Shown here piece by piece: positions 6,476-64,000 of a DNA stretch of 64,000 nt (within the stretch, counting starts at the first letter, position 1; each line of letters starts with the position of its first letter). The DNA comes from Chitinophaga pinensis. Its GTDB lineage: Bacteria > Bacteroidota > Bacteroidia > SXHM01. The stretch covers positions 5,485 to 69,484 of the forward strand of contig CAMDBK010000001.1 of NCBI GenBank assembly GCA_945889235.1, written 5' to 3'. Position numbers and translations under genes: made by a program. The notes beneath the pieces are model-generated. The model had not been told where the DNA came from and searched no databases. It worked only from the letters and a program-made list of their open reading frames with translations.

Positions 6476-6510
6476 TGGTTGGGGAGTGCCACAAAAACTG
6501 AGCCGCAGCA

Positions 6511-7440
6511 TTAGAATTTAGGTAAACCTTTCCTGGTGGTTTTCAACTTGTAGTTGTAGGTGATGAGGAAAAACATGTAGTGGTCAAGGTCACGCGGATC
6601 GCCACGTTGCTGACCAGCACAAGTCTGGCAGCCGCTAAACGGACCGGGAGCACCTCCCAGTCCACCATCTCCTAAAATTGCAGGGTCAGACAATTGGGCT
6701 GAGGCATCCCCAAAGTTAGAAGCCAGTTCGGTCTTATCGTAATACACAGTGCTTGCATCATCAATATAATCAGTAAAGGTTTTTCTGATTCCGTATTCAA
6801 TTCCGATGCTTGAAGTTTTGTTTAAACTGTATTTCAATCCAATTCCAACGGGTATTGCAAATTGAAAACGTGAGTAATCTTTACGGGTAGGAATTAGTCC
6901 TTGCCCTTCTGTATTTAAAGGTGCAAGTGCTGTCCATTTGCCGTTGTACATTGCTTTAGGATTAAAATAATAACCTGCCACACCAAAAAATCCATAAACA
7001 TAAATATCACTTCCTTTTTTACCACGACCACGCACACGCCTTACCTTGTATCGGCTTCCGATGGTTTCTTTCATCCATGAAAACTCATATTGCGCTGCAA
7101 GTTCCACAACGGGAGATTTGAACATTAGGTTTCTATTGTTTCTGTATGGTTCTTGAGTCCACTTGTCATCGCCATGTAATCTTCCGTATGAAAAACCTAC
7201 TTTAAGAGCTGTGGATTGTGAAAGTTTATAGCGCATTCCTAAGTTAAGCACATAACGGGTGGCCGCCATCTCCAAATCCTTGTAGTAATTGGTACCTATC
7301 TGGTTTGCCCCTCCCAGTTCTCCGAGAAAGTTAGTAGTTCCTACAGCAGCCACAATTTCGTAGCGCATACGTTTCCAGCGCTGAGCTTCTGTAGCTAATG
7401 GTAAAAGGATGATAAGCAGAAGAATATATCTTTTTATCAT
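6511..7440 (-). CDS. Outer-membrane beta-barrel protein (DUF6089-like), paralog 2
   Basis: Signal peptide MIKRYILLLIILLPLATEAQ. Tandem paralog of 5609-6475 with shared motifs. Confidence 0.5.
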   Translation of the reverse strand: MIKRYILLLIILLPLATEAQRWKRMRYEIVAAVGTTNFLGELGGANQIGTNYYKDLEMAATRYVLNLGMRYKLSQSTALKVGFSYGRLHGDDKWTQEPYRNNRNLMFKSPVVELAAQYEFSWMKETIGSRYKVRRVRGRGKKGSDIYVYGFFGVAGYYFNPKAMYNGKWTALAPLNTEGQGLIPTRKDYSRFQFAIPVGIGLKYSLNKTSSIGIEYGIRKTFTDYIDDASTVYYDKTELASNFGDASAQLSDPAILGDGGLGGAPGPFSGCQTCAGQQRGDPRDLDHYMFFLITYNYKLKTTRKGLPKF

Positions 7441-7516
7441 GATGGCTTTCAGATAGTTTTGAGTTTTGATAAGGCAAATATAAACATATTATGAACAACC
7501 AAGCAAGTTTTTAACA

Positions 7517-8152
7517 CTACAAAAACGGATTATTTGCCTTTTCAAACCCGATTGTGGTTTCAGGGCCGTGTCCGGGATAAACGGTAACGCCATCTCCAAG
7601 CGGAAAAAGTTTTTCGTGAATGCTGCTTATCAGTGTATCAAAATTCCCTCCGGGAAGGTCTGTTCTTCCAATGCTTCCATGAAACAAAACATCGCCACCA
7701 ATTACAAACTTCTGTTCTTTGTTATAAAAACATAAACTTCCGGGTGAATGGCCGGGAGTAAAAAGAATTTGTAGTGAGCTTTCACCAAATTTAATCACAT
7801 CTTTTTCATCAATAAATTTTCCGGGAGCGGGCGGTTTTTCAAGACGAATTCCAAAAATAGCAGCGGCTCTTTCTGCGTTTTCAAAAATCGGAATTTCAAT
7901 TTTGTTGGTTTCTGAAATCAGGTTGTAGCGTTCGGTAATGTATCTACAGCCGAGAATATGATCGATGTGACAATGTGTAAGAATCAGACGGACAGGTTTC
8001 AGATTATTGTTTTCAATAAACGTTGAAAGCTCTGCCTGTTCCAGCGGAGTGTAGCATCCCGGGTCAATGATAATGCACTCATTAGTTTCGTCATACAAGA
8101 CATACGTATTTTCCTGAAAAGGATTAAACGTGAAAAAAGCAATTTGAATCAT
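7517..8152 (-). CDS. MBL-fold metallo-hydrolase (glyoxalase II-like)
   Basis: HCHIDHILG metal-binding motif. 211 aa. Confidence 0.7.
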   Translation of the reverse strand: MIQIAFFTFNPFQENTYVLYDETNECIIIDPGCYTPLEQAELSTFIENNNLKPVRLILTHCHIDHILGCRYITERYNLISETNKIEIPIFENAERAAAIFGIRLEKPPAPGKFIDEKDVIKFGESSLQILFTPGHSPGSLCFYNKEQKFVIGGDVLFHGSIGRTDLPGGNFDTLISSIHEKLFPLGDGVTVYPGHGPETTIGFEKANNPFL

Positions 8153-8195
8153 GGTGCAAATTTAGTTTTCATTTCTTTCTATCTTTGACTCCCTT

Positions 8196-9119
8196 ATGCA
8201 AATACAAACAATCTCGCCTCAGGCGAGACCCGATTTCAGCAAAACACCAACCATTGACCAGGTTGGAGTGGAAGAACGTGTGGCACGATTTCAAACGCGT
8301 AGCATAAAAAAAGAAAGCAAAGTGCAGGGTTTGAAACTTGCATTGAGCATGATTGACCTTACTACGCTGGAAGGAAAAGACACCGAAGGAAAAGTAAAAC
8401 AACTGTGTTATAAAGCAGCACATCTGCACGATGTTCTGCAGGGCTTACCGACCGTTGCAGCAGTTTGTGTTTATCCCACTTTTGTGAAACTTGCCAAAAA
8501 ACAATTAGAAGGAACGGGGATAAAAGTTGCTTCCGTTGCAACGGCTTTCCCGAGCGGCCAATCTACACGAAAAGTGAAAATAAGCGATACACATTTTGCG
8601 GTGGAGAATGGAGCAGATGAGGTGGACATGGTGATTTCGCGCGGTGAATTTCTGGAAGGAAATTATGCCTATGTATTTGATGAAATTGCCGAGGTGAAAG
8701 CAGCTTGTGGCGATGCACGATTAAAAGTAATTTTAGAAACAGGAGAACTCTCAACGCTTGATAATGTGCGCAGGGCAAGCGAAATAGCAATTTATGCCGG
8801 TGCAGATTTTATTAAAACGAGCACCGGAAAAATTTCTCCAGCCGCCACACAGCCTGTTACCCTGGTGATGTTAGAAACCATTCGCGACTACTATTACAAA
8901 ACCGGAAAAATGGTGGGAATGAAACCCGCAGGTGGAATTTCAACGGCAAAAATTGCGTTGCAATATCTGGTGATGCTGCGCGAAACATTGGGTGATAAAT
9001 GGCTCACCAACGAATGGTATCGCTTTGGTGCGAGCAGTCTGGCAAATGATATTTTAATGCAATTGCAAAAAGAACAGGATGGGGTTTATCAAAGCGGAGA
9101 TTATTTTTCAAAAGACTAA
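8196..9119 (+). CDS. deoC: Deoxyribose-phosphate aldolase (long form)
   Basis: LSMIDLTTLEG near the N-terminus, DMVISRGEF and IKTSTGK (Schiff-base Lys region) motifs. Confidence 0.7.
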   Translation: MQIQTISPQARPDFSKTPTIDQVGVEERVARFQTRSIKKESKVQGLKLALSMIDLTTLEGKDTEGKVKQLCYKAAHLHDVLQGLPTVAAVCVYPTFVKLAKKQLEGTGIKVASVATAFPSGQSTRKVKISDTHFAVENGADEVDMVISRGEFLEGNYAYVFDEIAEVKAACGDARLKVILETGELSTLDNVRRASEIAIYAGADFIKTSTGKISPAATQPVTLVMLETIRDYYYKTGKMVGMKPAGGISTAKIALQYLVMLRETLGDKWLTNEWYRFGASSLANDILMQLQKEQDGVYQSGDYFSKD

Positions 9120-9132
9120 AAGCCCCTCACGA

Positions 9133-9149
9133 CCTCCCCAAAGGGGAGG
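9133..9149. terminator. GC hairpin CCTCCCC-AAA-GGGGAGG downstream of deoC
   Basis: Perfect 7-bp stem 14 bp after the deoC stop and before the aldehyde dehydrogenase ATG at 9166. Preceded by CCCCTCAC. Resembles the in-gene element at 11615-11662. Confidence 0.4.
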
Positions 9150-9165
9150 AGAAAAACAAAGAACA

Positions 9166-10641
9166 ATGAAAAAAATAATAAATAAAAAAACTCTTTCTCT
9201 GGGCAATTCTAAATGGGCTTACGCGCCTTCACCTGAAAGCACTTCGCATATCAATCTGAAGAAGCAATACGAACTTTTTATTGATGGCAAGTTTGTAAAG
9301 CCTTCATCCGGAAAATATTTTGACACTATCAATCCGGCTACTGAAGAAAAGCTTTCTTCCATTGCTGATGCGGATGAAAAAGATGTGGACAAAGCAGTGA
9401 AAGCAGCGCGCAAAGCGTACGATAAGACATGGAGCAAGCTGCCGGCAAAAGAACGCGGAAAATATATTTACCGCATTGCGCGTTTGTTGCAGGAGCGTGC
9501 TCGTGAGTTCAGTGTTATAGAAACAATGGATGGCGGAAAATCCATTCGCGAATCACGTGACATTGATATTCCGCTGGCAGCAAATCATTTCTTTTATTAT
9601 GCAGGTTGGGCTGATAAATTAGAATACGCTTTTCCGAATCGTAAGCCGCAAGCACTGGGTGTTGCAGGACAAATTATTCCCTGGAATTTTCCATTGCTGA
9701 TGGCAGCGTGGAAAATTGCCCCAGCTTTGGCAACGGGCAATACCGTTGTTTTAAAGCCCGCGGAAACCACCTCGCTCACTGCTTTAAAACTTGCCGAACT
9801 TATTGCCGATAGCGGTTTGCCCGATGGCGTGGTGAACATTGTTACAGGCGCTGGGCGCACCGGAGCAGCAATTGTGAATCATCCCGATATCGATAAAATT
9901 GCGTTCACAGGTTCTACCGATGTGGGTAAACTAATTCAGAAAGCAATTGCCGGAACCAGGAAAAAAGCAACGCTGGAGTTGGGCGGCAAAGCCGCCAACA
10001 TTATTTTTGAAGATGCTCCGATTGACCAGGCGGTGGAGGGAATTGTGAACGGAATATTTTTTAATCAGGGGCATGTGTGTTGTGCCGGTTCGCGCCTGTT
10101 TGTGCAGGAAGGCGTTGCTGATGTGGTTATCCGCAAACTGAAAGACAGATTGGAAACGTTGATTGTTGGCAACCCACTTGATAAGAACACCGATATAGGT
10201 GCTATTAATTCAAAACAACAACTTGCCACCATCAACAAATACATTGAGATTGGTAAAAACGAAGGCGCTGATTTTTACCAGAGCAAGTGCAGCGTTCCGA
10301 GTAAAGGATATTTCTGCAGACCAACATTATTTTTGAATGCATCACAAAGTCACCGTGTGGTGCAGGAAGAAATTTTTGGTCCGGTTTTAACTGTGCAGAC
10401 TTTCAGAACTGTTGAAGAAGTAATTGAAAAAGCCAACAATATTCCTTATGGTTTGTCGGCTGGCGTGTGGACGGATAAGGGTTCTAAAATTTTTAACATG
10501 ACCAATAAATTGCGTGCAGGGGTTATTTGGGCAAACACTTATAATAAGTTTGACCCTACATCACCTTTCGGGGGATATAAAGAAAGCGGGTTTGGTCGCG
10601 AGGGCGGGTTGCATGGGTTAATGCCCTATCTTAAATTTTAA
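9166..10641 (+). CDS. NAD(P)-dependent aldehyde dehydrogenase
   Basis: ELGGKAANIIFEDA and FFNQGHVCCAGSRLFV (catalytic Cys) motifs. Start moved to the ATG at 9166 (MKKIINKK) after the hairpin. Confidence 0.85.
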   Translation: MKKIINKKTLSLGNSKWAYAPSPESTSHINLKKQYELFIDGKFVKPSSGKYFDTINPATEEKLSSIADADEKDVDKAVKAARKAYDKTWSKLPAKERGKYIYRIARLLQERAREFSVIETMDGGKSIRESRDIDIPLAANHFFYYAGWADKLEYAFPNRKPQALGVAGQIIPWNFPLLMAAWKIAPALATGNTVVLKPAETTSLTALKLAELIADSGLPDGVVNIVTGAGRTGAAIVNHPDIDKIAFTGSTDVGKLIQKAIAGTRKKATLELGGKAANIIFEDAPIDQAVEGIVNGIFFNQGHVCCAGSRLFVQEGVADVVIRKLKDRLETLIVGNPLDKNTDIGAINSKQQLATINKYIEIGKNEGADFYQSKCSVPSKGYFCRPTLFLNASQSHRVVQEEIFGPVLTVQTFRTVEEVIEKANNIPYGLSAGVWTDKGSKIFNMTNKLRAGVIWANTYNKFDPTSPFGGYKESGFGREGGLHGLMPYLKF

Positions 10642-12129: not shown

Positions 12130-13215
12130 ATGAAAAATTCTATTGTCATATCACTGCTTTCATCACTCATTATTTTTTCCTGTTCTTCCCCGAAATCTTC
12201 AGAGAACAAGGAAACTCCCGGTGAAAATAAAGTTGCAGAAACGTTTGAACTGAAGCCTCACTTTGGTGAAACCGAATCAAATTATTATGTAGCAGATTCA
12301 ATTGCAGGTCATATTCATCAGCCTAATACTATAAAGGAATTCAAGTGGCCCGAGCATCCGTTGGGAAAGCTGGTGATTAAAACAAATAACTTAGGATTTA
12401 AGGAAGACAGCGATACAAAAATTGAAAAAAATTCAAATACATTTCGTGTAATTGTTACCGGTGATTCACATATTGATGGTGTGGTTTACAATTCAGAATC
12501 ATTTCCGAATCAACTGGAAGAAATGATTAATTTAAAAGTTTCCGGTAATGATGTTGCGTGGGAAATTATCAATGCAGGAGCGGGTTATTATGGACCACAG
12601 AATTATTTTGGAGTATTGAAACGATTTGAATCTTTGAAGCCCGATTTGTTTATTGTTACAATTTATATAGGCAATGATTTTTTAGATGCAGTAAGAATTG
12701 AGAATGAAAATAACCGGCTGACTGTTCCCGAACGGAAAGACGATTATTATTATGATTTATGGGCGGTAGATGAAAAGCATCCCGGATTTACCGGACAACT
12801 GATGAATCAGGTAAAGTTTTTTAAAAAATTTCCTGAATTTAAAACTACGGCAATTTCAATAACTCAAAAACAGTTAACCCTTATAAAAGAACAGTGCGAT
12901 AAAAATAAAATCGGACTTTACATTTTGCTTTTGCCTACAAAGGTTGATGTTGAGCCTGCAACAGACGAAGCAAGCATTAAAGATGTTCAGAGTATGCTCA
13001 AATTTTCTAATGATGATTTGAAAATAAACAGGGAACTGACAGAAAAACTGATAGAATGGTTAAAAACAAATAACCTTAACTATGTTGACCTGTACGATAA
13101 TTGGAAAGAGAAAAAAGGAACTGAAGAATTATTCTGGAAAGCAGATTATCATTTGAATGATAAGGGTCACAAGAGTATTGCTGAAATTATGCAACCCATA
13201 ATTTCTCAACACTGA
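12130..13215 (+). CDS. SGNH/GDSL-family hydrolase lipoprotein
   Basis: Lipobox LIIFSCSS. Block I VTGDSH, block III YIGNDF, block V DYHLNDKGH. Confidence 0.55.
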   Translation: MKNSIVISLLSSLIIFSCSSPKSSENKETPGENKVAETFELKPHFGETESNYYVADSIAGHIHQPNTIKEFKWPEHPLGKLVIKTNNLGFKEDSDTKIEKNSNTFRVIVTGDSHIDGVVYNSESFPNQLEEMINLKVSGNDVAWEIINAGAGYYGPQNYFGVLKRFESLKPDLFIVTIYIGNDFLDAVRIENENNRLTVPERKDDYYYDLWAVDEKHPGFTGQLMNQVKFFKKFPEFKTTAISITQKQLTLIKEQCDKNKIGLYILLLPTKVDVEPATDEASIKDVQSMLKFSNDDLKINRELTEKLIEWLKTNNLNYVDLYDNWKEKKGTEELFWKADYHLNDKGHKSIAEIMQPIISQH

Positions 13216-42796: not shown

Positions 42797-45700
42797 TCAC
42801 TCCACCACAACCTTCCTCACCACCACCTCATCACCCGCACGGACTTTAAAGAGGTAAAGCCCTTTGGAAAAACCTTCAAGATTTAGTTTCTCGGTAAAAT
42901 ATTTTGTGGTGCCTGCGCGGTTGAAATAAACACGCTGACCAAGTGTGTTAGTTAATTCCATTTCCAGTGCAACAGGTTTCTCTGTTTCAAAAGTTATAGT
43001 AAACACTCCTGTATTCGGGTTGGGATAAATTATCATTTGTCCATTATCACTTGTCAATTCATTAAAGCCTACCCCAAACTCAACTACAATAATAGTCTGG
43101 CTTACCGCGGTGGTGCAGTTATAATTAATGGAGGTTTGGGTAATGGTATAAATTCCAGTTTCGGTATAAGCGTGTATAGGATTTACAGCTGTTTCTACCA
43201 TGCTGCCATCACCAAAATCCCAGAACCATTGCTCGGCATTTACCGAAGTATTAGTAGCCACAACTGTTCCCAAACCTGAAAGTACAACGGTATCGGTATT
43301 CAATGTAAAGCCTGCCACTACGCCCAGCGAAGCACAGTTCCATTGCACATCAATAATATGTACGGCAGTATCGGAACAGGTGGCGTTGGCTGCAATCAGA
43401 AATACTGGATGCGTTCCAACTTCAGTGTACGTATAAACAGGACTTTGAATAAAAACATTGGGGCTTCCGTCACCAAAATTCCAGTTCCATGTAATGGGAA
43501 CGGGAGCAGTAAGGTCGGTAAAACTTACAGGGGTATTTATTTGTATAGTATTAGGCGAACTGAATTGTGCGTTAATGGTGGGCAATACAGTTATGGTCAT
43601 AGCATCGGTAGCCTGACAACCATATTGGTCGGTCATTAATACAGAATAGTTTCCTGCCTGCAACGTCTGTAAAGTTTGTTCTGCTTCTCCGCTGAGGTGA
43701 ATATTGTTCCAGTACCATTCATAACTGTCTGCACCGGGGTTACCGGCATTCAGTTCGGGATAACTTTCGTTGGTACACATTACTAAATCAAAACCTAAAT
43801 TAACGGAAGGGTCGCTTACGGTCAGGTTCATGGTATCAGCACCCATGCAGCCCTCTGCCGAAGTAATGGTAATGCCATAATCGCCCGGCAAAATGGTTTG
43901 CAGAAACTGTGAATTTTGTCCGATAGGATTTCCGTTAAAGTTCCATGCATAGGTTGAGGCGTTGGGTAATCCTGCATCAAGTACCGGGAAGTTTCCGTTG
44001 ATACAAACTGCATCATCGCCTCCTATATCTACCGGAAGAACAATGAACACATCTAAATTAATTCCGTCAGAACCTGAGCAGCCGCTTCCGTAATCAACCG
44101 TAACAGTATAATCACCCGGACCAACCGCCTGAACAATTTGAGTGTTGTCGGTAATTGTGCTGCCGTCTAATGTCCATGAATAGGTTGCGCCAATGTTTCC
44201 TCCGGCATTCAGGAAAGGCATATCCTGCAAATAACAGATAGAAGTATCGGGGCCTAAATCAACAACAACGGCATCCAGCACATGAATGGTGTCGGTAGTT
44301 TTTGAAGTTCCGCAGCAGCTTGTTGTTACCAGTTCAACTACATAATCGCCTGCAGTTGCAAACGAAACCGTTCCGGGATTTTGTGATGATGATGAGGTAA
44401 TGGAACCTCCGGGAATTGTCCAGTCATAAGTCATGGCCGTGGAAGAAGCAGTAAGGTCGGTGCTTTGTCCGGCACAGAAAGTTGTTTTGGTAGCAACAAT
44501 TGCGGGAGGTGTAAAATCAACCGTGATGTCAACAAAGTTGGCGTAGAAAAAAGGAACGCCATCTACAATTAAAGAAATGTTTCTGAAGCCCAGCGGTCCG
44601 CTGTATTCAACGGTATCGTTGTTGGCTTCACTTCCGGGAGGTGTTGCACCGTAACCGAAAATCCAGTTAATAATTCCGGTGGTATCGGTTTGAACAACTA
44701 CCGTTGAGTTGGTGCAGCCATAATACTCCACACGAATTTCGGGTTCAAAAGGATTGTAATTATAAGGACGCAAAACCTGTGAGGGGCTTCCGTATTCATA
44801 AAAAGCGCGGCTCATGCCGTCAGAACCTTTTCCGCCTTCACCGCCTTGTCCGCCTTGTCCGCCATTACCACCATCACCACCTTCACCGTTATTGCAACTA
44901 TGATCGGGACCAAAATCACCAAGATTTCCACCTTGTCCGCCTAAGCCACCTTGTCCGCCAATACCGCCTGCACCGCCTGCACCACCTTGTCCGCCTGTAC
45001 CGGGAACGAGGTAACAATCCTGCACAATTCCGTTAATTCCATTATTGAAAACAAAGACACAAAATGAACCACCGCCACCGCTTCCGCCTAAACCACCTCC
45101 ACCTTTTTCACCACCTTCGCCACCGCCACCGCCACCGCCACCGCTGCCTGAAGTAAAATAAGCAGTATCACCGGGATAAGGAATTGGGCCGGGTGTTGGA
45201 ATGTAGGGTTGTAATGCGGCCGGCTCACAACCTTTGGCGCCACCTCCACCACCTCCACCACCACCTGCTCCGTTGGTAAGTCCGGGATCACCCTGCTCAC
45301 CATCACCGGGAACATAATATCCACCGGCAAAAGTTGCAGTTCCCTGTAAACCGTTAAAACCTTCCAATCCATCTGAGCCATCTGAGCCCTGCACACCGTG
45401 ATTAAGCCCTTGAGCAAGACAATTTGTATTTGCATAGGTAACTTCACATAAACCTTGTCCACCTTGTCCGCCTTGTCCGGGAGCATAGCCCTGTCCATTT
45501 GTTCCGGGATGACCGGGGTTGGTGGTTTCGCTTCCGGGGGTAACTATCCATTGACAAAAGCCAAGCAGACATTGTTCCATTACTTCAAATCCGCCCTGGT
45601 CGCCACCGTTACCGGCATCGCCACCAGCATTGCTTCCGGGAAAAGAACCCGAACCACCGATACCACCGGCCTTGCAGCAATTCCCAACACTTTCACCTGA

Positions 45701-46270
45701 TTCACCTCCTGTACCGTCACCACCATCTACGCCTGTTATACCTGCATCACCGGGTAATCCGGGTGAGCCATCGCCCACTGTAACATGGCAACGTGAAACG
45801 GTGTATTCAGTACATCCTGAAATATAAATTCCGTAAACGGTAACGCTATTTCCCGTTGCATCAGCCACTTCCAGTCTTAAATCCATTAAGCGGAAATTGC
45901 TGAGGTTAAAACAATTTATGCCGATAAGAGCCGGAGGTGTAGTAAGCTGATTAGAATTATCACGAATAATTTTCGTGATGTTGACATTACTTTTTATCCA
46001 TGTGGTTACATCAAAGCCGCCTTCGATGGTGAGGTTGCTCTGCATCTGCAAGGTTTGTGAAATGGGGTAATTGCCTTCCGCCATTCTTATTTTTTTGTTG
46101 GCAGGACTAACAAGTGTTAAGCCGAAATCGAGTGAAGCGGGGTTGGCTTTTGTGCCCGTAGTTCCGCTGCTGGCACCATTTGGAGAAACATAAATAACGC
46201 CACATTCCTGCGCAAAAAGAAAAAATGATTGTGTGGAAAGAAGAAGGAGAAGTAGTAAGCTACGCAACAT
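42797..46270 (-). CDS. Giant T9SS-secreted adhesin-like protein: N-terminal beta-helix-like region, collagen-like Gly-triplet tracts, three Ig-like repeats, two PKD domains and a T9SS sorting domain
   Basis: WNFGDGS PKD motifs. GSPGLPGDAGITGVDGGDGTGGESGES and GGQGGAGGAGGIGGQGG.. tracts. C-terminus MIIYPNPNTGVFTITF...LYLFKVRAGDEVVVRKVVVE. Confidence 0.6.
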   Translation of the reverse strand: MLRSLLLLLLLSTQSFFLFAQECGVIYVSPNGASSGTTGTKANPASLDFGLTLVSPANKKIRMAEGNYPISQTLQMQSNLTIEGGFDVTTWIKSNVNITKIIRDNSNQLTTPPALIGINCFNLSNFRLMDLRLEVADATGNSVTVYGIYISGCTEYTVSRCHVTVGDGSPGLPGDAGITGVDGGDGTGGESGESVGNCCKAGGIGGSGSFPGSNAGGDAGNGGDQGGFEVMEQCLLGFCQWIVTPGSETTNPGHPGTNGQGYAPGQGGQGGQGLCEVTYANTNCLAQGLNHGVQGSDGSDGLEGFNGLQGTATFAGGYYVPGDGEQGDPGLTNGAGGGGGGGGGAKGCEPAALQPYIPTPGPIPYPGDTAYFTSGSGGGGGGGGEGGEKGGGGLGGSGGGGSFCVFVFNNGINGIVQDCYLVPGTGGQGGAGGAGGIGGQGGLGGQGGNLGDFGPDHSCNNGEGGDGGNGGQGGQGGEGGKGSDGMSRAFYEYGSPSQVLRPYNYNPFEPEIRVEYYGCTNSTVVVQTDTTGIINWIFGYGATPPGSEANNDTVEYSGPLGFRNISLIVDGVPFFYANFVDITVDFTPPAIVATKTTFCAGQSTDLTASSTAMTYDWTIPGGSITSSSSQNPGTVSFATAGDYVVELVTTSCCGTSKTTDTIHVLDAVVVDLGPDTSICYLQDMPFLNAGGNIGATYSWTLDGSTITDNTQIVQAVGPGDYTVTVDYGSGCSGSDGINLDVFIVLPVDIGGDDAVCINGNFPVLDAGLPNASTYAWNFNGNPIGQNSQFLQTILPGDYGITITSAEGCMGADTMNLTVSDPSVNLGFDLVMCTNESYPELNAGNPGADSYEWYWNNIHLSGEAEQTLQTLQAGNYSVLMTDQYGCQATDAMTITVLPTINAQFSSPNTIQINTPVSFTDLTAPVPITWNWNFGDGSPNVFIQSPVYTYTEVGTHPVFLIAANATCSDTAVHIIDVQWNCASLGVVAGFTLNTDTVVLSGLGTVVATNTSVNAEQWFWDFGDGSMVETAVNPIHAYTETGIYTITQTSINYNCTTAVSQTIIVVEFGVGFNELTSDNGQMIIYPNPNTGVFTITFETEKPVALEMELTNTLGQRVYFNRAGTTKYFTEKLNLEGFSKGLYLFKVRAGDEVVVRKVVVE

Positions 46271-56383: not shown

Positions 56384-57466
56384 TTACACCGCCACTCCTA
56401 CCAGCATCATATCATCCAGCTGGCGGGCTGATTTTTTCCAGTTATCAATTTCAACTGAAAAGGCTTTTTCCTGTTCGGCTGAGGGTTTGGTATAATTAGC
56501 TGCCATGTTTTTGCGCAGGCGGGTAAGTCCGAACTTTTCATCATTGGCATTAAACTGGTCGGTTATGCCATCGCTGAACATATAGATGCGGTCGCCTGTT
56601 TGGTAGGGAATAGTTTGTGTGGAGTACTTGAATCCGGGTTTGAAATGGAAGCCTCCAAGACTGAAAAAATCTGCTTTCACTTCTTTCATATCTCCGTTAG
56701 CACTTATATAACACAGTCCCATTCCGGCTCCTGAAAAGTCAATTGTTTTTTGTTTGGTATCAATGCGGCACAGTGCCATTTCCATTCCATCGTGCACTTC
56801 TGAATCGCGTTTCTGATTCAGTGTTTTCTGTATCTCTATGTGTATGGTGTCTAATATTTCGGCTGTGCCGGCATGTTTATTTTCGCTGGTTATTTTGTTG
56901 AGCAGACAGTACCCTATCAGTGACATAAATGCACCGGGAACTCCGTGCCCTGTACAATCCACCGCTGCTATATATATATATCCGTTTGATTTATGATACC
57001 ATAAAAAATCACCGCTTACCACATCACGCGGGCGGAACAAAAAGAAGGAACCGGGAAAATCGGTTTTCATTTGTTCGGCATTTGAAATCAATGCTAACTG
57101 TATGCGCTGCGCGTAATCTATACTCTGCGATATTTTTTCAAGTGATTTGCTTAGATCTTTTTGTGCTAGTGAAAGTTCACTGTTCTTTTCATGCAAATCA
57201 CGGGTGCGGTCCTGCACCTTCTGTTCAAGGTTTTGATTCATTTGCATTACCTCATCCTGTTTTATTCCGGCAAGCATGGCAAACAACCCCAGAAACAAGG
57301 GTGCGCTGTCAATAACCCAATGCAGGGGCTGTGTGTGTTGAACCTGTTTTATGCTGTCTATTGTAAAAGGGAGACCCTGAATAAGAACATCTAAAATACT
57401 TGAGATTACAGGAAAACAGAAGCCAAAAAGGGCTCCGTAAATAAAGTAGCGTGTTCTGTAATTCAT
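56384..57466 (-). CDS. Membrane-anchored PP2C/SpoIIE-family Ser/Thr phosphatase (SiaA/RsbU-like)
   Basis: Two N-terminal TM helices and a coiled-coil. PP2C motifs DCTGHGVPGAFMS, MFSDGITDQF and a C-terminal DD. Confidence 0.7.
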   Translation of the reverse strand: MNYRTRYFIYGALFGFCFPVISSILDVLIQGLPFTIDSIKQVQHTQPLHWVIDSAPLFLGLFAMLAGIKQDEVMQMNQNLEQKVQDRTRDLHEKNSELSLAQKDLSKSLEKISQSIDYAQRIQLALISNAEQMKTDFPGSFFLFRPRDVVSGDFLWYHKSNGYIYIAAVDCTGHGVPGAFMSLIGYCLLNKITSENKHAGTAEILDTIHIEIQKTLNQKRDSEVHDGMEMALCRIDTKQKTIDFSGAGMGLCYISANGDMKEVKADFFSLGGFHFKPGFKYSTQTIPYQTGDRIYMFSDGITDQFNANDEKFGLTRLRKNMAANYTKPSAEQEKAFSVEIDNWKKSARQLDDMMLVGVAV

Positions 57467-57570: not shown

Positions 57571-57948
57571 CTATGCTACCTGAATTTCAAAGGGAATATC
57601 TATGATGCTTTGCAATTCTTCGCCTTTGGTCTTCATCATTTCGTCTGAGTTTTTGCAATGCCAGATTACTTTGGCTGTTTTGTTTTTGTCTATCAATTCC
57701 TGCATGCCGCTCATGATGTTGAACAGATGGCGGGTTGATGAGGAGTTGATATAATCAAGGTGAAGGTGAAGTTCAGTTGAATCAAGTGGTGATTGGTAGT
57801 ATTCGCTCAGCCATTCATAAACGGGTTTAAAAAATGCCTGTGAATCTTCGGGCAGGGCTTTTCCTGAAATAAGAAGTTGTCCGTTGCCGGCATCCAGTGA
57901 TATAGCGGGTGTATCTTCTGTTGCAGGTATATTGATGTTGTTTGCCAT
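57571..57948 (-). CDS. DUF1987 (SiaC-like) partner-switch protein
   Basis: 125 aa. LHLDYINSSSTRHLF resembles the DUF1987 phosphorylatable segment. Flanked by the PP2C and GHKL genes. Confidence 0.5.
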   Translation of the reverse strand: MANNINIPATEDTPAISLDAGNGQLLISGKALPEDSQAFFKPVYEWLSEYYQSPLDSTELHLHLDYINSSSTRHLFNIMSGMQELIDKNKTAKVIWHCKNSDEMMKTKGEELQSIIDIPFEIQVA

Positions 57949-57952
57949 CGGA

Positions 57953-59044
57953 TTAGAATGTTACATTTAAGGTGAAAAAACTCATGTTGTTATCCGCATC
58001 GTCAAAAGAGTATGCAAGTGGTCCGCTGCTTTCACGGGCTATTTCAATAAGGCCTAAACCTCCTCCGCCTTTTTCGCTGAACATTCCTTCTTTCAATGTT
58101 TTTTTGTACAGGTCTTTTAACTCGTAATTATTGAGTTTGTTAAGCCCTGTAATCTTTTCGCTCAGTATATTTTTAGTTTCAGAGGTTACCATATTTCCTG
58201 TGCTTATGGTGTAGTTCTGGTCATCAAATGTAATCATAAAAAGACCTTCTTTGTTCTGCGAATCTAATGAATGTCTTGAAACATTCTGCAACTGCTCGAC
58301 CAAAATAGAATATAAACTTTTTCCTCGTGAGCTTTCATCGGGCGAATACATGCGCTCCTGAATGATGTTGATGATGGGTAGAATTGAGTCTTTTGAAAAG
58401 TCGCCTTTGTAGACCATGAGTATGTTTGAGTTCTTTATCTCATCGTCAAACTGGCGGGTGAAGCGGAGTGTTTCTCCTACTTCGCGCTGCATGAGGTCTT
58501 CTTTTGATGCGAGTTTAAGTGAGAGGTAAAAGTTATAAAACTTTCCGTTTATGTCTTCGATATGGAAATCAATGGGCGGAACGGCTTTGCGTGCTATTTC
58601 AATCAGTCCGAGCCCGGCACCGCCTTTTGCACTAAACTGTTTGTTCTCCAGAATTTCGAAATAGAGGGCTTTGAGTTTATCTTTTTCAAGGGTGTTGAGT
58701 TGTTGCAGTTTTTCGCGGAGCATGTTTGCCCGCTCCATATCAATAAGATTGATGGAGCTGATGTAATTGGCTTCGCCCACTACGCGGGTTGAGAACAGGG
58801 TGCTGTCGTCCAGTCCATCGGGGTTATCGGGTTTGCCGTGGCGCACGAGGTTTTGAAAACACTCTACCATGATGTAGTTTACACGGTTGCGCATTTTTGA
58901 TAAATCCTGAAGACTGTTGACATTAAAATCGGTTAGACGGATTATTCCGTCAGTGATTTTATCGTTTACCTCGCCATTGAAAATGAGGCTCAGCCTGTCG
59001 TTGCTGAGTTTTTTGAACAGGTAATAGCTTTTTGATTCAGACAT
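57953..59044 (-). CDS. Tandem-duplicated GHKL/HATPase-like Ser kinase (SiaB/RsbW-like x2 in one polypeptide)
   Basis: Two ~180-aa halves. Each has an N-box-like E..QN(L/V)(V/S)RH and a G2-like KGG(A/G)GLGLIEIAR. 363 aa. Confidence 0.5.
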   Translation of the reverse strand: MSESKSYYLFKKLSNDRLSLIFNGEVNDKITDGIIRLTDFNVNSLQDLSKMRNRVNYIMVECFQNLVRHGKPDNPDGLDDSTLFSTRVVGEANYISSINLIDMERANMLREKLQQLNTLEKDKLKALYFEILENKQFSAKGGAGLGLIEIARKAVPPIDFHIEDINGKFYNFYLSLKLASKEDLMQREVGETLRFTRQFDDEIKNSNILMVYKGDFSKDSILPIINIIQERMYSPDESSRGKSLYSILVEQLQNVSRHSLDSQNKEGLFMITFDDQNYTISTGNMVTSETKNILSEKITGLNKLNNYELKDLYKKTLKEGMFSEKGGGGLGLIEIARESSGPLAYSFDDADNNMSFFTLNVTF

Positions 59045-59092: not shown

Positions 59093-60634
59093 TTAACACA
59101 ATTTTTGCATTGGCTTTGCTTTTGCCATGCTTTGCAGCCACATGTTAAGCTCTGCAGTACCCAGCGGGCGGTTTTTGAGTTGGGCAAACTGCGGTTGCAT
59201 GGCTTGGGCTATGCGTTTGGTATCAGCAAGGGATGAGGTGGTAAGTAATTGGTTGAGCAGACTTAATATCACTGTCTCCAAGGGATATAACAAATTGGTT
59301 TTTTTGTAAAACCGTTTGGCACTGCGCAAATGATTTTCAACCAAATCATGCTTACCCGCACCGTACCATGCAACAAGGGTAAAGAGCAAGCTGAAATCCC
59401 GTATATCCTGCCGCTCGCCTGTACGCCCAAATTCATTTATGCGCAGCAGCCAGCGCAAAGCCTCGGCATAATCATCAATTACAAAACAGCATACGGCTGC
59501 GTTGTGAATAAGTGAGAGAGCAAATGAATCAGGAACTTTATAAGTTTTTAGCCCCTTTTTAATTTCACTCAGCAGTGTGGGCAGATTAGCAAAGTCAGCT
59601 GTGTTGAGGCAAAGCAGCAACTGGTTTAATTTTATTTGCCAGAACCAACGGGCATTTTCGGTGGTGCCGTGCACGGTAATATTTTGTGCAAGGGTTAATA
59701 TTTCTTTGGCTGCAACATAGCGGTCTAACAAAAAACAGGTATTACAGAAGTGGATAAGAAATGCGCGGTAGGCATCTGACTTTTCTTTTTGCTGGTGAAC
59801 ATGGTCTTGCCACAAGCGGTTATTTTGCTTCAGGTATTCAAAACTTTTTTCATGATTACCCAATAGTTCATTGAGGTGCGACTGCGCATTATAATAAAAC
59901 CGTTGCGAACGAAAATTAAGAGCCTTGTTTTTATTCTTTAGCAGCGTATTGTGTTGTATTTTCAGCAGTTCCTTTTTCAGTTCAGCGGTGCGGCACAAGT
60001 TGTATTTGCGTTTAAGCAGAAAAATAACCTCACACAGGGTACGGTACTCTGTTTCATTGGCAATAAGGCGGTTCAATTCTTTTCTTCGGGCTGCAATGCG
60101 ATTCAATTCATTGCGGAAATCATCAGGAAAAAGGTCTTTGAGTAGTGCGCCCTGCCGTTTTAGTAGTTCCAGTTCGGTTAAATGATATTCATATTTTTCT
60201 GCCTGTTCACGGGCATCGGCAAGCAGTCTGCTACACTGCACAAACAGGTTTTTTCCGTACAATACTTTCTCCAGTTCAAGCAGGTATAGCAGATGGTTTT
60301 CAACGGTATCACTTTTACGGAAACCTGTTAAACTCTGGTGTACCAAGGCAGTCAGCAGGTTTTTGTAATGTGCAAAATCCCATCCGGGGTTTTTTTTCAG
60401 CAGGGTGGATTTCAGCTTTTCTTCACTGGCGTTGCCCGGCTGGTGCAGCCCATTAAATAAGAGCAGCAGGCGGGGACGGTTTTGCGCGGGATATTCCTTT
60501 AGCCGTGCCAGGCAAAATTGGGTTTCGCTCCGGTCCAGGCTCTGGATTAATTCCTGCAAATCACTGTTGCGCTGGCGCATAAGTTCGGCATTAACAATGT
60601 GTTTTACAAAGGTAGGATAAAAATGAAACTGCAA
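59093..60634 (-). CDS. All-helical 513-aa hypothetical protein (TPR-like), first gene of the putative Sia-like operon
   Basis: No catalytic motifs recognised. Same strand as the downstream genes, separated from them by 48 bp. Confidence 0.4.
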   Translation of the reverse strand: MQFHFYPTFVKHIVNAELMRQRNSDLQELIQSLDRSETQFCLARLKEYPAQNRPRLLLLFNGLHQPGNASEEKLKSTLLKKNPGWDFAHYKNLLTALVHQSLTGFRKSDTVENHLLYLLELEKVLYGKNLFVQCSRLLADAREQAEKYEYHLTELELLKRQGALLKDLFPDDFRNELNRIAARRKELNRLIANETEYRTLCEVIFLLKRKYNLCRTAELKKELLKIQHNTLLKNKNKALNFRSQRFYYNAQSHLNELLGNHEKSFEYLKQNNRLWQDHVHQQKEKSDAYRAFLIHFCNTCFLLDRYVAAKEILTLAQNITVHGTTENARWFWQIKLNQLLLCLNTADFANLPTLLSEIKKGLKTYKVPDSFALSLIHNAAVCCFVIDDYAEALRWLLRINEFGRTGERQDIRDFSLLFTLVAWYGAGKHDLVENHLRSAKRFYKKTNLLYPLETVILSLLNQLLTTSSLADTKRIAQAMQPQFAQLKNRPLGTAELNMWLQSMAKAKPMQKLC

Positions 60635-60863
60635 CGGTTTTTATTTTTCTGCTGTTGCGCAATGCCTTATGCTGTGCGGAATTTATACTTGCTGTTGCCC
60701 GGTATTTTAAATCCTTGCCGGCCTGTTACAGCAGTATTTTATCGTCCCTGCCTGCTCTCATTAACTGCTTCATTTTGGTTTTAACATTCGCGGGGGCGCT
60801 TCTACTTTTCGGTCATCTTTTAACCAAACGGATGATGCATAACCAACCTACTTCACACTACTG

Positions 60864-61100
60864 TTTCCGGTCGGAAAGTGCACTGCCGAAATTGAATTCA
60901 TGGTGTTTCCGGTCAGAAAGTATATCACCGAAATTCAATTCATCCACTTTCCGGTCGGAAAATGCACATCCTAAATTCAATTCACCCGCTGTCAGGTCGG
61001 AAAGTGCATTGCTGAAATCCAGTTTACCCGGTATCCGGTCAGAAAGTGCATTACTCAAATTGAATTTGCCCGCTGTCCGGTTGGCAAGCATATTAAATAA
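60864..61100. repeat. Tandem array of ~5.6 contiguous 42-44-bp direct repeats, each with a TTTCCGGTCGGAAA palindromic core
   Basis: Units start at 60864, 60906, 60948, 60992, 61034 and 61076 (degenerate). Lies in the 500-bp divergent region between the 513-aa gene and the 399-aa gene. Confidence 0.7.
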
Positions 61101-61133
61101 GCTTAAAAACAAGAAAAACTAAATCATAAACCC

Positions 61134-62333
61134 ATGCCATCACGCAAATTACCTAACTCCAACCCCAAACGCTACCGCGCCCTGCGCATGATCAACGACC
61201 GCAAAACAGTAACACCTCCCGCTGAGGTGCCGCTTAACTCCGCTACCATTATGCGGTTCGATTTGTTTTTTCCTACTTACAAAAGTAAGATACTGGCTAT
61301 TGCCGCTGCCCTGTCGGCACAGGGTGCAGCCAGCGCATTGGTAAAAACAGCCAAACAGCTTGCCGGCTGGGTAGTGGATGATTTTTATGAAGCCCTGCAA
61401 CGGGCAGTAAGGCGTGGGGTAATTGATGCAGCGCAGCGCCCCCTGTATAGCTTAGACATGAATGAAACAGGCACGCCAAAGCTAAGCAGCGAACAGGATA
61501 TATTAGACTGGGGTGAACATGCACACGATGGCGAAACTGCCCGTGTAGCAGGCGGGGGTGTACCCATCACCTTTCCTTCATTGGCTGAACTGGACAACGC
61601 TACCGCTGATTTTAAAACCAAGAACCTGAACCAGGCTGCCGCCAAAACAGCGTATGATAACGCGCAGCAGGCATTAGTAACCGATAACACAGAAGCTGAT
61701 AAACTGGTTCTCAAATGCTGGAACGAAATAGAAACCAATTTTGATGAGGGCGATAAGCCCAGCATGAGGCGGCAGGCACGTGAATGGGGTGTGGTTTATA
61801 TCCCGGCAAAAGGTGAAACACTTGACCCCGATGAGTTTTCGGTAAAAGGGAAAGTAACCGACCTGAATACAGGCAACGGAATAGAGGATGTGGAACTGAA
61901 AGTAGTGCAAACCTCTGAAACCATACTGAGTGAAAGCAATGGCGATTACCTGATTACTTACCTGCTTCCCGGAATTTATACCCTGGAAGCAAGCAAAGCC
62001 GGATACACCGCCCAAACCCTGCCGGGCATAGTGGTAACGGCAGGCAACATAACCGGGCTGGATATTGAGCTTACACCGGTGGCGGTTACCGGCACCGTAA
62101 GCGGTACTGTTTCTCTTACAGGTATACCCGTAAGCGGAGCAACAGTAAGCATTGAGGGATTTCCATTGCTTACAGCGGTAACCAACCCGGCAGGGCTTTA
62201 CAGCATTGGCAATATACCCGCAGGAGCGCAAAACGTGAAGGCGCAAATGCCGCCACCTTCAGGTGCTTTGCCCCAAGTGCATCCGGTTACGGTTGTAGCG
62301 GGAAGCGAGGTAACTGATGATTTCAATTTTTAA
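61134..62333 (+). CDS. Hypothetical protein with C-terminal carboxypeptidase-regulatory-like/Ig-like beta-sandwich repeats, no signal peptide
   Basis: VKGKVTDLNTGNGIEDVELKV..GDYLITYLLPGIYTLEASKAGY pattern. GC-richer than the window average. Confidence 0.4.
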   Translation: MPSRKLPNSNPKRYRALRMINDRKTVTPPAEVPLNSATIMRFDLFFPTYKSKILAIAAALSAQGAASALVKTAKQLAGWVVDDFYEALQRAVRRGVIDAAQRPLYSLDMNETGTPKLSSEQDILDWGEHAHDGETARVAGGGVPITFPSLAELDNATADFKTKNLNQAAAKTAYDNAQQALVTDNTEADKLVLKCWNEIETNFDEGDKPSMRRQAREWGVVYIPAKGETLDPDEFSVKGKVTDLNTGNGIEDVELKVVQTSETILSESNGDYLITYLLPGIYTLEASKAGYTAQTLPGIVVTAGNITGLDIELTPVAVTGTVSGTVSLTGIPVSGATVSIEGFPLLTAVTNPAGLYSIGNIPAGAQNVKAQMPPPSGALPQVHPVTVVAGSEVTDDFNF

Positions 62334-62351: not shown

Positions 62352-64000
62352 ATGAAAAAGTTCCTGCTGCTCTTTTTAATTGTCAATTATCAATTATCAA
62401 TTGTCAATTCACAAGCCCAAACCCTTTCGGTAACCCTAACCCCTTACGAATATGCCAACGGATATACTATCAGTTGCAACGGTGCGCAAGACGGCAGCAT
62501 TGACTTAACCGTTACCAATGCAACAGGTCCTTATACTGTGTTATGGAATGATGAAGTAACCACCCAAGACCGTGAAAACCTTGCAGCCGGTGAATACACG
62601 GTACTGGTAATTGACAGTTTAAGCGATACCGCCACCGCTTCAATAACATTATTGCAGCCTTCGGCTATTGATATTTCACTTTACAGTCCGAGTTACAGCG
62701 GCTATAATATACATTGCAACGGTGGAAGCGATGGAGAAATTGTTGCCAATGTTTCGGGCGGTGAAACACCTTATACTTATTTATGGAGTAACGATAGTAT
62801 TACTTCCAGCATCGCTGATTTAGTTACCGGTGAATATACCGTTACCGTTACTGATTCGAGAGCTTGCTTTGCTTCGCTCGCACTAACGGTAACGGAACCC
62901 CCTGCGCTGCAAAGCAGCATCAGCGCATGGGAAAACTCGTTTGGCTTTAACATTAATTGCAATGGCGCTGAAACCGGAAGCATTGATTTGGAAGTAAGCG
63001 GAGGCGCATTACCTTATGATTATACCTGGAACTCAGGCGACTTTACCCAAGATGTGAGTAATGCCGTTGCAGATTTTTACATGGTGCGCATTGAAGATAA
63101 TAATGGGTGTGTAAAGTTCGACAGTATTGTGCTGAATGAACCACCTGCTTTGCAGCTTGAAGCCAATCTGTATCAATATCCCAACGGAACATTTTTTACC
63201 TGTGCAGCCTGTCACGATGGGCAAGCCACCCTGGTTGCAACAGGCGGTACCGGCTCTTACAACTTTGAATGGGCTATGTTTAATGATGAAAATAACACAG
63301 CCGGAATTGACAGCATTTATGCCGACAGCCTTATTACTGCCGTTGTTACCGATGCGGCAGGCTGCACCGATACGCTTGTGTTTAACCTGCCCGGTGAAGG
63401 AAACGGAAATCATCCGCAACTGATTGTTACAAAATCAGAATATGCCGGTGGCTATCACGTAAGCTGCAACGGCTGCGCCAATGGATGGATTAACCTTGAA
63501 GCAGTGGGCGGCACCGGGCCTTATACCTTTTGGTGGGAAGACCTTGCCCAAGGCGAGGCAGGCGCCAACGCACAAAACCGCGACAGCCTTGCAGCCGGAC
63601 AATACCGCGTACGCATTACCGACAGTCAGGGGCTGATGACTAATACCGTAATTACACTGCTGCAACCCGCCCTTTTTACCCTGAACGTAAGCAGCACTAT
63701 TTATACCTGCAACGGGCAAAATGAAGGCAAGGTGCAGGCAGATGCTAACGGAGGAACTCCACCTTATACCTATCAATGGCAGAAAGACGGTACCCTGCTT
63801 GAAATCAATAATGATGATTTTGAACTTACCGAAACAGGCAATTACACGGTACTGGTTACCGATGCCAACGGTAATACACTTTCCGATACTGCGCTGGTTG
63901 CAGCGCGTGCTGCACTTACTATTACTGCACAGGGCATTGAACAATACCCCGATGGCGCACACACCGCCTGCTCTTACAACAACGGAACAATGACTATACA
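62352..64000 (+). CDS. SprB-repeat gliding-motility adhesin-like protein, 5' part (runs off the window)
   Basis: Hand translation from the ATG at 62352: signal peptide, then repeated (Y/I)(S/H)CNG..DG.I......GG..PY(T/D)Y.W units. No stop to base 64000. Absent from the ORF track. Confidence 0.7.
   Translation, partial: MKKFLLLFLIVNYQLSIVNSQAQTLSVTLTPYEYANGYTISCNGAQDGSIDLTVTNATGPYTVLWNDEVTTQDRENLAAGEYTVLVIDSLSDTATASITLLQPSAIDISLYSPSYSGYNIHCNGGSDGEIVANVSGGETPYTYLWSNDSITSSIADLVTGEYTVTVTDSRACFASLALTVTEPPALQSSISAWENSFGFNINCNGAETGSIDLEVSGGALPYDYTWNSGDFTQDVSNAVADFYMVRIEDNNGCVKFDSIVLNEPPALQLEANLYQYPNGTFFTCAACHDGQATLVATGGTGSYNFEWAMFNDENNTAGIDSIYADSLITAVVTDAAGCTDTLVFNLPGEGNGNHPQLIVTKSEYAGGYHVSCNGCANGWINLEAVGGTGPYTFWWEDLAQGEAGANAQNRDSLAAGQYRVRITDSQGLMTNTVITLLQPALFTLNVSSTIYTCNGQNEGKVQADANGGTPPYTYQWQKDGTLLEINNDDFELTETGNYTVLVTDANGNTLSDTALVAARAALTITAQGIEQYPDGAHTACSYNNGTMTI

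Follow-up and report, generated by a model that had tools for sequence, protein, structure and literature searches.

The window, by which we mean the whole 64-kb stretch of DNA analyzed here, carries a 42-bp tandem array that belongs to a conserved, apparently undescribed class of arrays tied to type IX secretion cargo operons. The arrays share one architecture, are associated, in the fetched loci exclusively, with one gene family (represented in the window by a gene for a 399-aa protein), are conserved within lineages, turn over in sequence between lineages, and gain or lose whole units. As the best explanation, we propose a helically phased array of putative dimeric-protein sites controlling the cargo operon, and we give this proposal an even chance of being right; the parts of it that we infer are that a protein binds, that the operon is regulated in this way, and which protein is involved. 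The whole analysis was computational. A literature search for 42-bp repeats, or for repeats upstream of type IX secretion or SprB genes, retrieved nothing relevant.

The window array and the class of 41–43 bp arrays

TRF reported a single array at this place, with a period of 42, 5.4 copies, 74% matches, and a score of 186, as well as an 84-bp super-period (Table 1), and the contiguous 42-bp repeat of the original prediction is therefore real. In-register units started at 60864, 60906, 60948, 60990, and 61032, followed by a degenerate sixth unit from 61074; the last unit was degenerate in most related arrays as well. The pairwise identity of units 1–5 was 67–76% (mean of 73%), which is lower than the 80–90% originally given. 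At a lag of 42, the self-match was 0.74 in the array, compared with 0.275 ± 0.042 for the whole window and at most 0.42 anywhere else. All 42 bp are repeated and the units are contiguous, and the array is not CRISPR-like because spacers are absent, as had been argued. The window locus lies on a metagenome contig of 77.5 kb (ENA ERZ27280297), and the array was identical in a second, independent assembly of the locus.

Table 1. Positions in the window of the array, its motifs, and the surrounding genes and reading frames.
Feature	Position	Strand	Basis
Tandem array, 5 × 42 bp and the start of a degenerate sixth unit	60863..61088	.	TRF; register and identity matrix
Degenerate sixth unit, grading into the A-rich leader	61074..61115	.	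43–52% identity to units 1–5
A-rich stretch directly 5′ of the ATG of the 399-aa gene	61116..61133	+	Sequence; similar leaders at related loci
Dyad 1 of unit 1, TTTCCG-GT-CGGAAA	60864..60877	.	Pattern search; palindrome analysis (arm 6, loop 2)
Dyad 1 in further units	60906-60919, 60948-60961; degenerate 60990-61003, 61032-61045	.	
Second, AT-rich element of unit 1, GAAATTGAATTC, with the 9-bp dyad AATTGAATT	60888..60899	.	Regex
Variants of the AT-rich second element	60930-60941, 60972-60983, 61014-61025, 61056-61067	.	
TTTG-N6-ACATTCGC	60774..60791	+	Sequence comparison
TACCTTTG, match to TAnnTTTG	60607..60614	-	Regex
155-aa ORF, judged not a gene	60655..61122	+	No Pfam; no wobble pattern; periods of 41/43 in relatives
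84-aa ORF, judged not a gene	60858..61112	-	Called as a 77-aa gene in the source assembly (L001/L002)
399-aa gene: long-helix bundle (residues 1–230) and two CarboxypepD_reg (transthyretin-like) domains	61134..62333	+	Pfam, AlphaFold
SprB-repeat protein gene, 1145 aa, running off the window	62352..64000	+	Gene call; Pfam SprB on L001
Divergent 495-aa gene (ORF extends to TTG at 60634)	59093..60580	-	NCBIfam NF058569
DUF6272, SiaC, and SpoIIE phosphatase genes, a partner-switch-like cluster headed by the 495-aa gene	57953-59044, 57571-57948, 56384-57466	-	

Two motifs recur in the window unit. Every unit had been described as starting with TTTCCGGTC(G/A)GAAA and as containing a second element, GAAATTGAATTCA; the former was exact in units 1–3 only, and the latter was exact in unit 1 only, with variants in the others. 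The core is a dyad of 6+6 bp, the center of which (GT) is not symmetric. A pattern search for the 14-mer TTTCCGGTCGGAAA with up to two mismatches gave nine matches in the 64-kb window, against 0.65 expected. Seven of the nine fell inside the array and represented five sites, two of which also matched on the minus strand; the other two, at 12725 and 50868, had two mismatches and were at chance level. The core was exact or one mismatch off in units 1–3 only, and it read TGTCAGGTCGGAAA and TATCCGGTCAGAAA in units 4 and 5 and TGTCCGGTTGGCAA in unit 6. The AT-rich second element, GAAATT(G/C)AATTC, was found in each unit 24 bp past the core. Dispersed palindromes of the REP/BIME type were considered and rejected: within the window, the core was confined to the array apart from the two chance-level hits, and the paralogous loci of one MAG had a different unit at each, unlike REP/BIME.

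The loci of 66 homologues of the 399-aa gene were collected by exact-protein look-up and from species-representative genomes and JGI metagenomes; the profile used for the representative library included the C-terminal domains, and its matches were consequently mostly Ig-repeat giants, so that this search added nothing. The class was defined by a period of 41–43 bp, at least two units, one or more dyads per unit, and an end upstream of the ATG of a family member. The window array, with TTTCCG-GT-CGGAAA as its dyad and its end 46 nt upstream of the start codon of the 399-aa gene (ATG at 61134), agrees with this definition throughout. Such an array was present directly upstream of the family gene in about 46 of the 55 informative homologous loci (those with enough upstream sequence, mostly from Bacteroidota MAGs and metagenome contigs), and the array-less loci mostly belonged to distant short-form homologues of 28–34% identity, e.g., that of Carboxylicivirga. 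The arrays comprised 2–14 units, mostly with a period of 42, and periods of 41 and 43 bp were seen in L021, L022, L026, L036, L046, and L061. In the 486 kb of fetched loci, all the arrays with periods of 41–43 bp were located upstream of a family gene, most of them ending 29–110 nt short of its ATG; the nearest other period was 45 bp, in one array located elsewhere. The unit consensus was unrelated between lineages and also among the four paralogues of one MAG (L023, L028, L029, and L030).

Two side observations concern the reach and the surroundings of the class. A MAG labeled Verrucomicrobia subdivision 3 (L038) has a 42-bp array of 67% GC with the dyad CTGCCGC-GT-GCGGCAG upstream of a homologue at 34% identity, and the class may reach beyond Bacteroidota if the binning of L038 is right. 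Homopolymer or microsatellite tracts were noted just upstream of some arrays (G14 at about 100 nt in L025, (GT)n(GC)n at about 60 nt in L021, and C16 at the contig start of L010); these could be slipped-strand switches or sequencing artefacts.

The array had originally been presented as a feature of a divergent promoter region, between a Sia-like operon and the operon of the 399-aa and SprB-like genes. The gene positions agree with this location, but the tie to the divergent operon was not sustained, as the array accompanies the 399-aa family whatever sits upstream. The upstream neighbors were unrelated (rpoD, an OmpA-family gene, an epimerase, a solute-binding protein, an RDD protein, LytTR in one clade, and a RusR-like gene in the clade of the window), and a Pfam search with 20 of them returned unrelated housekeeping genes. 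In an all-against-all clustering of the neighbors, only the family itself and SprB-like proteins recurred. The downstream neighbors showed an enrichment of type IX secretion cargo: 41 proteins included 12 with Por_Secre_tail, 3 with CHU_C, 5 with SprB repeats, and 8 with PKD_4, and the SprB-repeat protein of the window is likely a type IX secretion cargo or adhesin. As the upstream neighbors are unrelated, the array travels with the downstream gene; the inherited unit is therefore the array with the family gene and the cargo genes, and not the divergent promoter region of this window.

One or two inverted repeats were found in almost every unit across the class, roughly half a unit apart. The dyads were AACCCAATTGGGTT and CTTTCCGTTCGGAAGG in L029 (centers 21 bp apart), TATATCGTATACGATATA in L033, CAGACAGGCCTGTCTG in L036, and ACACGTGT and CCCATTGGG in L051. 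The unit of L068, the protein of which is 57% identical to that of the window, is recognizably homologous to the window unit; its counterpart of dyad 1 is CTTACAGGTCGGTAAG, with TTTCC..GGAAA changed symmetrically (T:A to A:T) to CTTAC..GTAAG, and its counterpart of the AT-rich element is a clean dyad, AGGAAATTCCT. Half-sites of the TTCC/GGAA type recurred, and TTTCC was present in 8 of 24 consensus units, where 0.8 would be expected. A 7-bp AT/GC periodicity was detected inside the units, with a power of 0.59 compared with 0.28 in random 42-mers from the same loci (26 consensus units, the window included); in terms of arithmetic, 42 is both 6 × 7 and 4 × 10.5. No excess power was found in the units for A-tract curvature at 10.5 bp.

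Conservation, turnover, and unit number

The arrays were compared between related loci with the 4-fold sites of the adjacent gene as a reference. The identity was 0.92 for the arrays and 0.66 for the 4-fold sites between L005 and L008, 0.71 and 0.57 between the window and L004, and 0.82 and 0.66 between L014 and L015; these sequence comparisons indicate that the arrays are under purifying selection within a lineage. Between L005 and L006, the arrays were unrelated (0.41) although the identity was 0.63 at the 4-fold sites and 0.80 in the 200 nt before the array. Conservation within a lineage combined with wholesale switching between lineages is the pattern expected of a specific recognition sequence. 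The AT-rich motif is GAAATTGAAAC, window-like, in L006 and the reverse complement, GTTTCAATTTC, in L005 and L008, and this inversion argues for a function of the double-stranded DNA.

A noncoding block of about 140 nt is located between the stop codon of the LytTR gene and the array in L005 (5523-5685) and also in L006, L008, and L067. It opens with a hairpin (GCCCTGyCGGG...CAGGGC) and is 80–88% conserved among the four loci, though their arrays are wholly different.

The number of units varies by whole units, with short-read assembly error as a possible contributor. L051 and L053 differ by one 42-bp unit and are otherwise identical over 1.6 kb, and L015 has 84 bp, or two units, more than L017, with a protein identity of 97%. 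Contigs ended in or next to the arrays of L010, L011, L012, L018, L024, L045, L046, L052, and L059, and L026 contains an N run; as arrays break short-read assemblies, the unit counts there are uncertain. Of the functions originally suggested for the window array, an iteron-like binding array fits best, in view of the often centrally perfect dyads, the period fixed at four helical turns, and the purifying selection, and a repeat protein was not borne out. Whole-unit changes of the kind expected of a phase-variable repeat were seen in the relatives but not between the only two assemblies of the window locus, which have the same units.

Proposed duplex recognition, a possible leader RNA, and candidate binding proteins

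In the preferred explanation, the array would act in cis as a double-stranded DNA element. The units of 41–43 bp correspond to about four helical turns, and the short dyads, one or two per unit, are roughly two turns apart, which would place all the sites on one face of the helix. One or more sequence-specific dimeric proteins would bind the dyads cooperatively, and the resulting nucleoprotein structure, lying directly upstream of the operon or covering its start, would set the transcription level of the 399-aa helical/Ig-domain gene and the type IX secretion cargo genes that follow it. Were the array to overlap or follow the start site, the bound protein would act as a roadblock or at initiation. 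The site sequence would co-evolve with the binding protein, being kept within a lineage and replaced as a whole from one lineage or paralogue to another, and a gain or loss of whole units would change the number of sites and not their phase. Some observations count against this explanation: the C > G skew and the excess of open frames on the sense strand are strand-specific and not explained by a duplex, the 399-aa protein, the sole universal partner, is acidic, no DNA-binding gene is consistently linked, and the array is possibly transcribed.

The main rival is that the array forms part of a long 5′ leader RNA, in which tandem hairpins or a C-rich, G-poor tract would control mRNA stability, premature termination (Rho-dependent or other), or the translation of the 399-aa gene. 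We regard this as possible but rather unlikely. TAnnTTTG is the consensus of the Bacteroidetes -7 promoter box, and a regex search of the sense strand from 250 nt before the array to the ATG found it absent in nearly all loci. The shortest distance from an array to the ATG was 29 nt (L030), and with no box on the sense strand, the array may be transcribed. The one box match listed for the window, TACCTTTG, is on the other strand and probably serves the divergent gene (ATG at 60580). TTTG-N6-ACATTCGC was kept at five loci, with the same spacing, 50–75 nt before the arrays of L004, L005, L006, and L008 as well as in the window; this element may be a -7 box in degenerate form and mark the transcription start, in which case the array could overlap or follow the start site and would be part of the transcribed leader. 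The leader reading is also favored by an excess of C over G on the sense strand, seen in 31 of 36 arrays (mean skew of +0.18), by the excess openness of the sense frame, and by the folding of the window array, which was somewhat better than that of shuffled sequences (z of −2.8 for the plus strand and −3.7 for the minus strand).

The dyads themselves point away from RNA. The palindromes were perfect through the center in at least 14 independent lineages; such symmetry is not needed by a hairpin loop, in which it would arise about 1 time in 16 by chance, and is typical of the duplex sites of homodimers, which argues for duplex recognition by a dimer. Departures from the stems within arrays were one-sided in 178 cases and compensated in 17, and the mismatches on the sense strand were A.C in 61 cases versus G.U-type in 26; the predominance of A.C over G.U and the rarity of compensation argue against sense-RNA hairpins. 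The second motif is inverted between sister lineages, a strict unit of 41–43 nt is unaccounted for by RNA function, and the predicted fold paired units with each other instead of forming one hairpin per unit. A search against Rfam 15 gave only chance hits in the window region (E > 2.9), and no array of 11 related loci had a hit at the gathering score.

If dimeric proteins do bind the dyads, as we prefer to think, there are two candidates in the window, namely the divergently encoded 495-aa protein and the 399-aa protein. The 495-aa protein weakly resembles, over its full length, the BT2802/RusR family of candidate transcription activators (NF058569); by sequence, its residues 22–511 matched profile positions 3–500 of 502 with an E-value of 7e-16, at a score of 58 bits relative to a family cut-off of 550. 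A preprint (bioRxiv 10.1101/574913) describes RusR as a candidate positive regulator for the ribose locus of Bacteroides. We consider the RusR-like protein a plausible candidate for binding the window array. A RusR-like gene was found at only seven of the loci whose neighbors were clustered, and also at L068. RusR-like and SiaC-like genes together recurred near the arrays of L004, L014–L017, and L019, and in L068, a 495-aa gene occupies the same position.

A LytTR gene was detected by tblastn and an iterated HMM in only eight fetched loci, six of them distinct, being adjacent in L005–L009 and nearby in L014, L017, and L019. LytTR-regulated promoters are linked to the gene of a LytTR regulator and contain direct repeats in pairs, at a spacing of about 21 bp. 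This type of promoter was rejected for the window, which has no LytTR gene and in which the repeated elements are dyads, not direct 9-mers. Taken together, the LytTR search, the Pfam annotation of neighbors, and their clustering revealed no consistently linked DNA-binding gene among the fetched loci.

The 399-aa protein was modeled by AlphaFold with a pLDDT of 91–94. Its N-terminal domain had no significant fold match (best E-values of 0.098 in PDB and 0.11 in BFVD) and no Pfam, NCBIfam, or PHROG family, and no DNA-binding fold was recognizable in the protein. It is acidic (pI 4.9) except for a conserved basic N-terminus, MPxRRLPxSN..R, with a mean net charge of +5 over 30 residues. Residues 3, 5, and 8 of this arm tracked three palindrome types in the clade of the window: S-K-N in the window and L004; S-R-D in L005, L008, and L010 (only the arm residues were seen in L010, where the array is cut off by the contig end); and T-Q-N in L006 and L067. 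Between L006 and L008, 3 of 11 arm positions differed, but only 6% of the remaining domain. T3/R5 arms elsewhere went with different palindromes, the arm is packed against its own chain in the model, and the tracking, which rests on very few evolutionary events, may serve as a lead and not as evidence. An N-terminus of the ribbon-helix-helix type was rejected because the model paired the N-terminal strand within its own chain, and also in view of the different palindromes accompanying T3/R5 arms. A bolder version of the preferred explanation is that the array and the product of its own first gene form a self-specific module, in which each operon would have a private phased operator, read perhaps via the basic arm; we find this doubtful. 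If it were true, autoregulation would be exclusive to each locus, and the array and the protein would switch specificity together.

Reading frames across the arrays and comparison with known systems

One plus-strand and one minus-strand frame are open across the window array, as the original prediction had stated, and its view of these ORFs as probable artefacts agrees with our results. That the array is translated, as a small repeat protein or a functional upstream ORF, is very unlikely. Besides the two open frames, such a reading could draw on the minus-strand gene call of the source assembly and on an excess of open sense frames (15 of 18 arrays, where column shuffles would give 7.6 and the stop-triplet counts 10.8). 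Against it, periods of 41 and 43 bp occur in six loci, and when units were compared in the frame that is open on the sense strand (18 arrays), their divergence was 37.7, 43.0, and 44.2 at the three codon positions, with no clear excess at the third. Since there is no wobble pattern and periods of 41 and 43 occur, the ORFs were treated as artefacts. A search of 5.8 billion proteins gave no homologue of the minus-strand ORF at E ≤ 10, and Pfam gave no hit for either ORF. The would-be peptide repeats are of the FRSESALPKLNS type on the plus strand and of the LSDRKxxELNFGxA type on the minus strand; unit sequences, and hence peptides, are unrelated between loci. The arrays thus generate false small-ORF calls, such as the 77-aa minus-strand gene in public data.

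The closest known architecture is that of sopC of the F plasmid, the binding site of SopB, which consists of twelve 43-bp units with an inverted repeat in each, lies adjacent to sopA and sopB, and serves segregation. The arrays resemble it in that units of about 43 bp, or roughly four helical turns, follow one another head to tail without spacers, each with a short inverted repeat, and in that the sequence is system-specific. They differ in being chromosomal, without partition genes, with several arrays per genome and usually two different dyads per unit, and in their constant place immediately upstream of a single protein family, the one at the head of secretion-cargo operons. The partition context of sopC was looked for and is absent here: the neighbors of the window array carry SpoIIE, SiaC, DUF6272, CarboxypepD_reg, and SprB domains, and no parA or parB was found among them. 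That the array belongs to a mobile replicon, for which it would serve in partition or as the origin of replication in the manner of sopC or of iterons, is a reading that we also hold to be most improbable. Nearly the same architecture as in sopC and lineage-specific sequences, as in incompatibility groups, would suit it. It is opposed by the lack of ParA, ParB, and Rep genes among the scanned neighbors, the absence of the gene family from 72,556 plasmids and 50,697 phages, the absence of the core motif from viral contigs, the location of the loci on long chromosomal contigs beside housekeeping genes, and the presence of as many as four arrays in one genome.

Replication iterons are typically about 17–22 bp long and have a rep gene and an AT-rich origin region as neighbors. 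They are likewise tandem direct repeats with a lineage-specific sequence, and the units here are putative protein-binding sites; in contrast, the period here is 42, there is no AT-rich origin region, and no Rep domain was found among the scanned neighbors. The ribbon-helix-helix repressor omega of pSM19035 binds cooperatively to heptad operator/parS arrays upstream of promoters. Those arrays consist of contiguous direct and inverted sub-repeats, to which the 7-bp AT/GC sub-periodicity of our units bears a likeness, but the units have no heptad consensus, some dyads are out of heptad register (e.g., in L014), and no ribbon-helix-helix gene was found at these loci.

Two further systems are comparable in their genetic setting. 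In Haemophilus influenzae, 7-bp promoter repeats of hmw1A and hmw2A act as adhesin 'rheostats', and here too the repeat number varies between close relatives upstream of adhesin operons. The hmw repeats are short and simple and have no dyads, whereas the 42-bp units are complex, show purifying selection, and have kept their period across the phylum. The capsule loci of Bacteroides have locus-specific 5′ regulators, UpxY and UpxZ, and share with the present loci the arrangement of many paralogous surface-structure operons per genome, all of which begin with a conserved gene and have a cis element of their own. UpxY is NusG-like and acts on leaders that are not tandem arrays, whereas the 399-aa family has no similarity to NusG.

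A functionless minisatellite or an assembly artefact is hardly credible: tandem repeats are hard to assemble, and several contigs break at arrays and one has an N run, but two independent assemblies agree on the array of the window locus, arrays with a period of 41–43 bp occur at the same position in about 46 loci, which come from different studies, and the arrays are more conserved than 4-fold sites.

If the arrays bind protein, they would represent a widespread, unannotated regulatory architecture by which environmental Bacteroidota control surface adhesin operons and those for type IX secretion cargo. With the spacing fixed at four helical turns and the recognized sequence free to change, they would offer a natural system in which to follow the joint switch in specificity of a cis element and its binder and, as protein-binding platforms, the tuning of expression by whole-unit changes in copy number.

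Three minor features were recorded. Many overlapping tandem repeats of 9, 18, and 27 bp occupy 44825-45479 of the window, within a minus-strand ORF (42797-46270, 1157 aa) that probably encodes a Gly-rich repetitive protein. In L006, a DUF805b RNA motif of Rfam (RF02914, 49 bits, above the gathering score) is located at 6480-6515, directly behind the family gene's stop codon. In L068, Thoeris-like defense genes (TIR_2, SIR2_2/STALD, and two ThsB_TIR) are located downstream of the family gene at 7078-10198.
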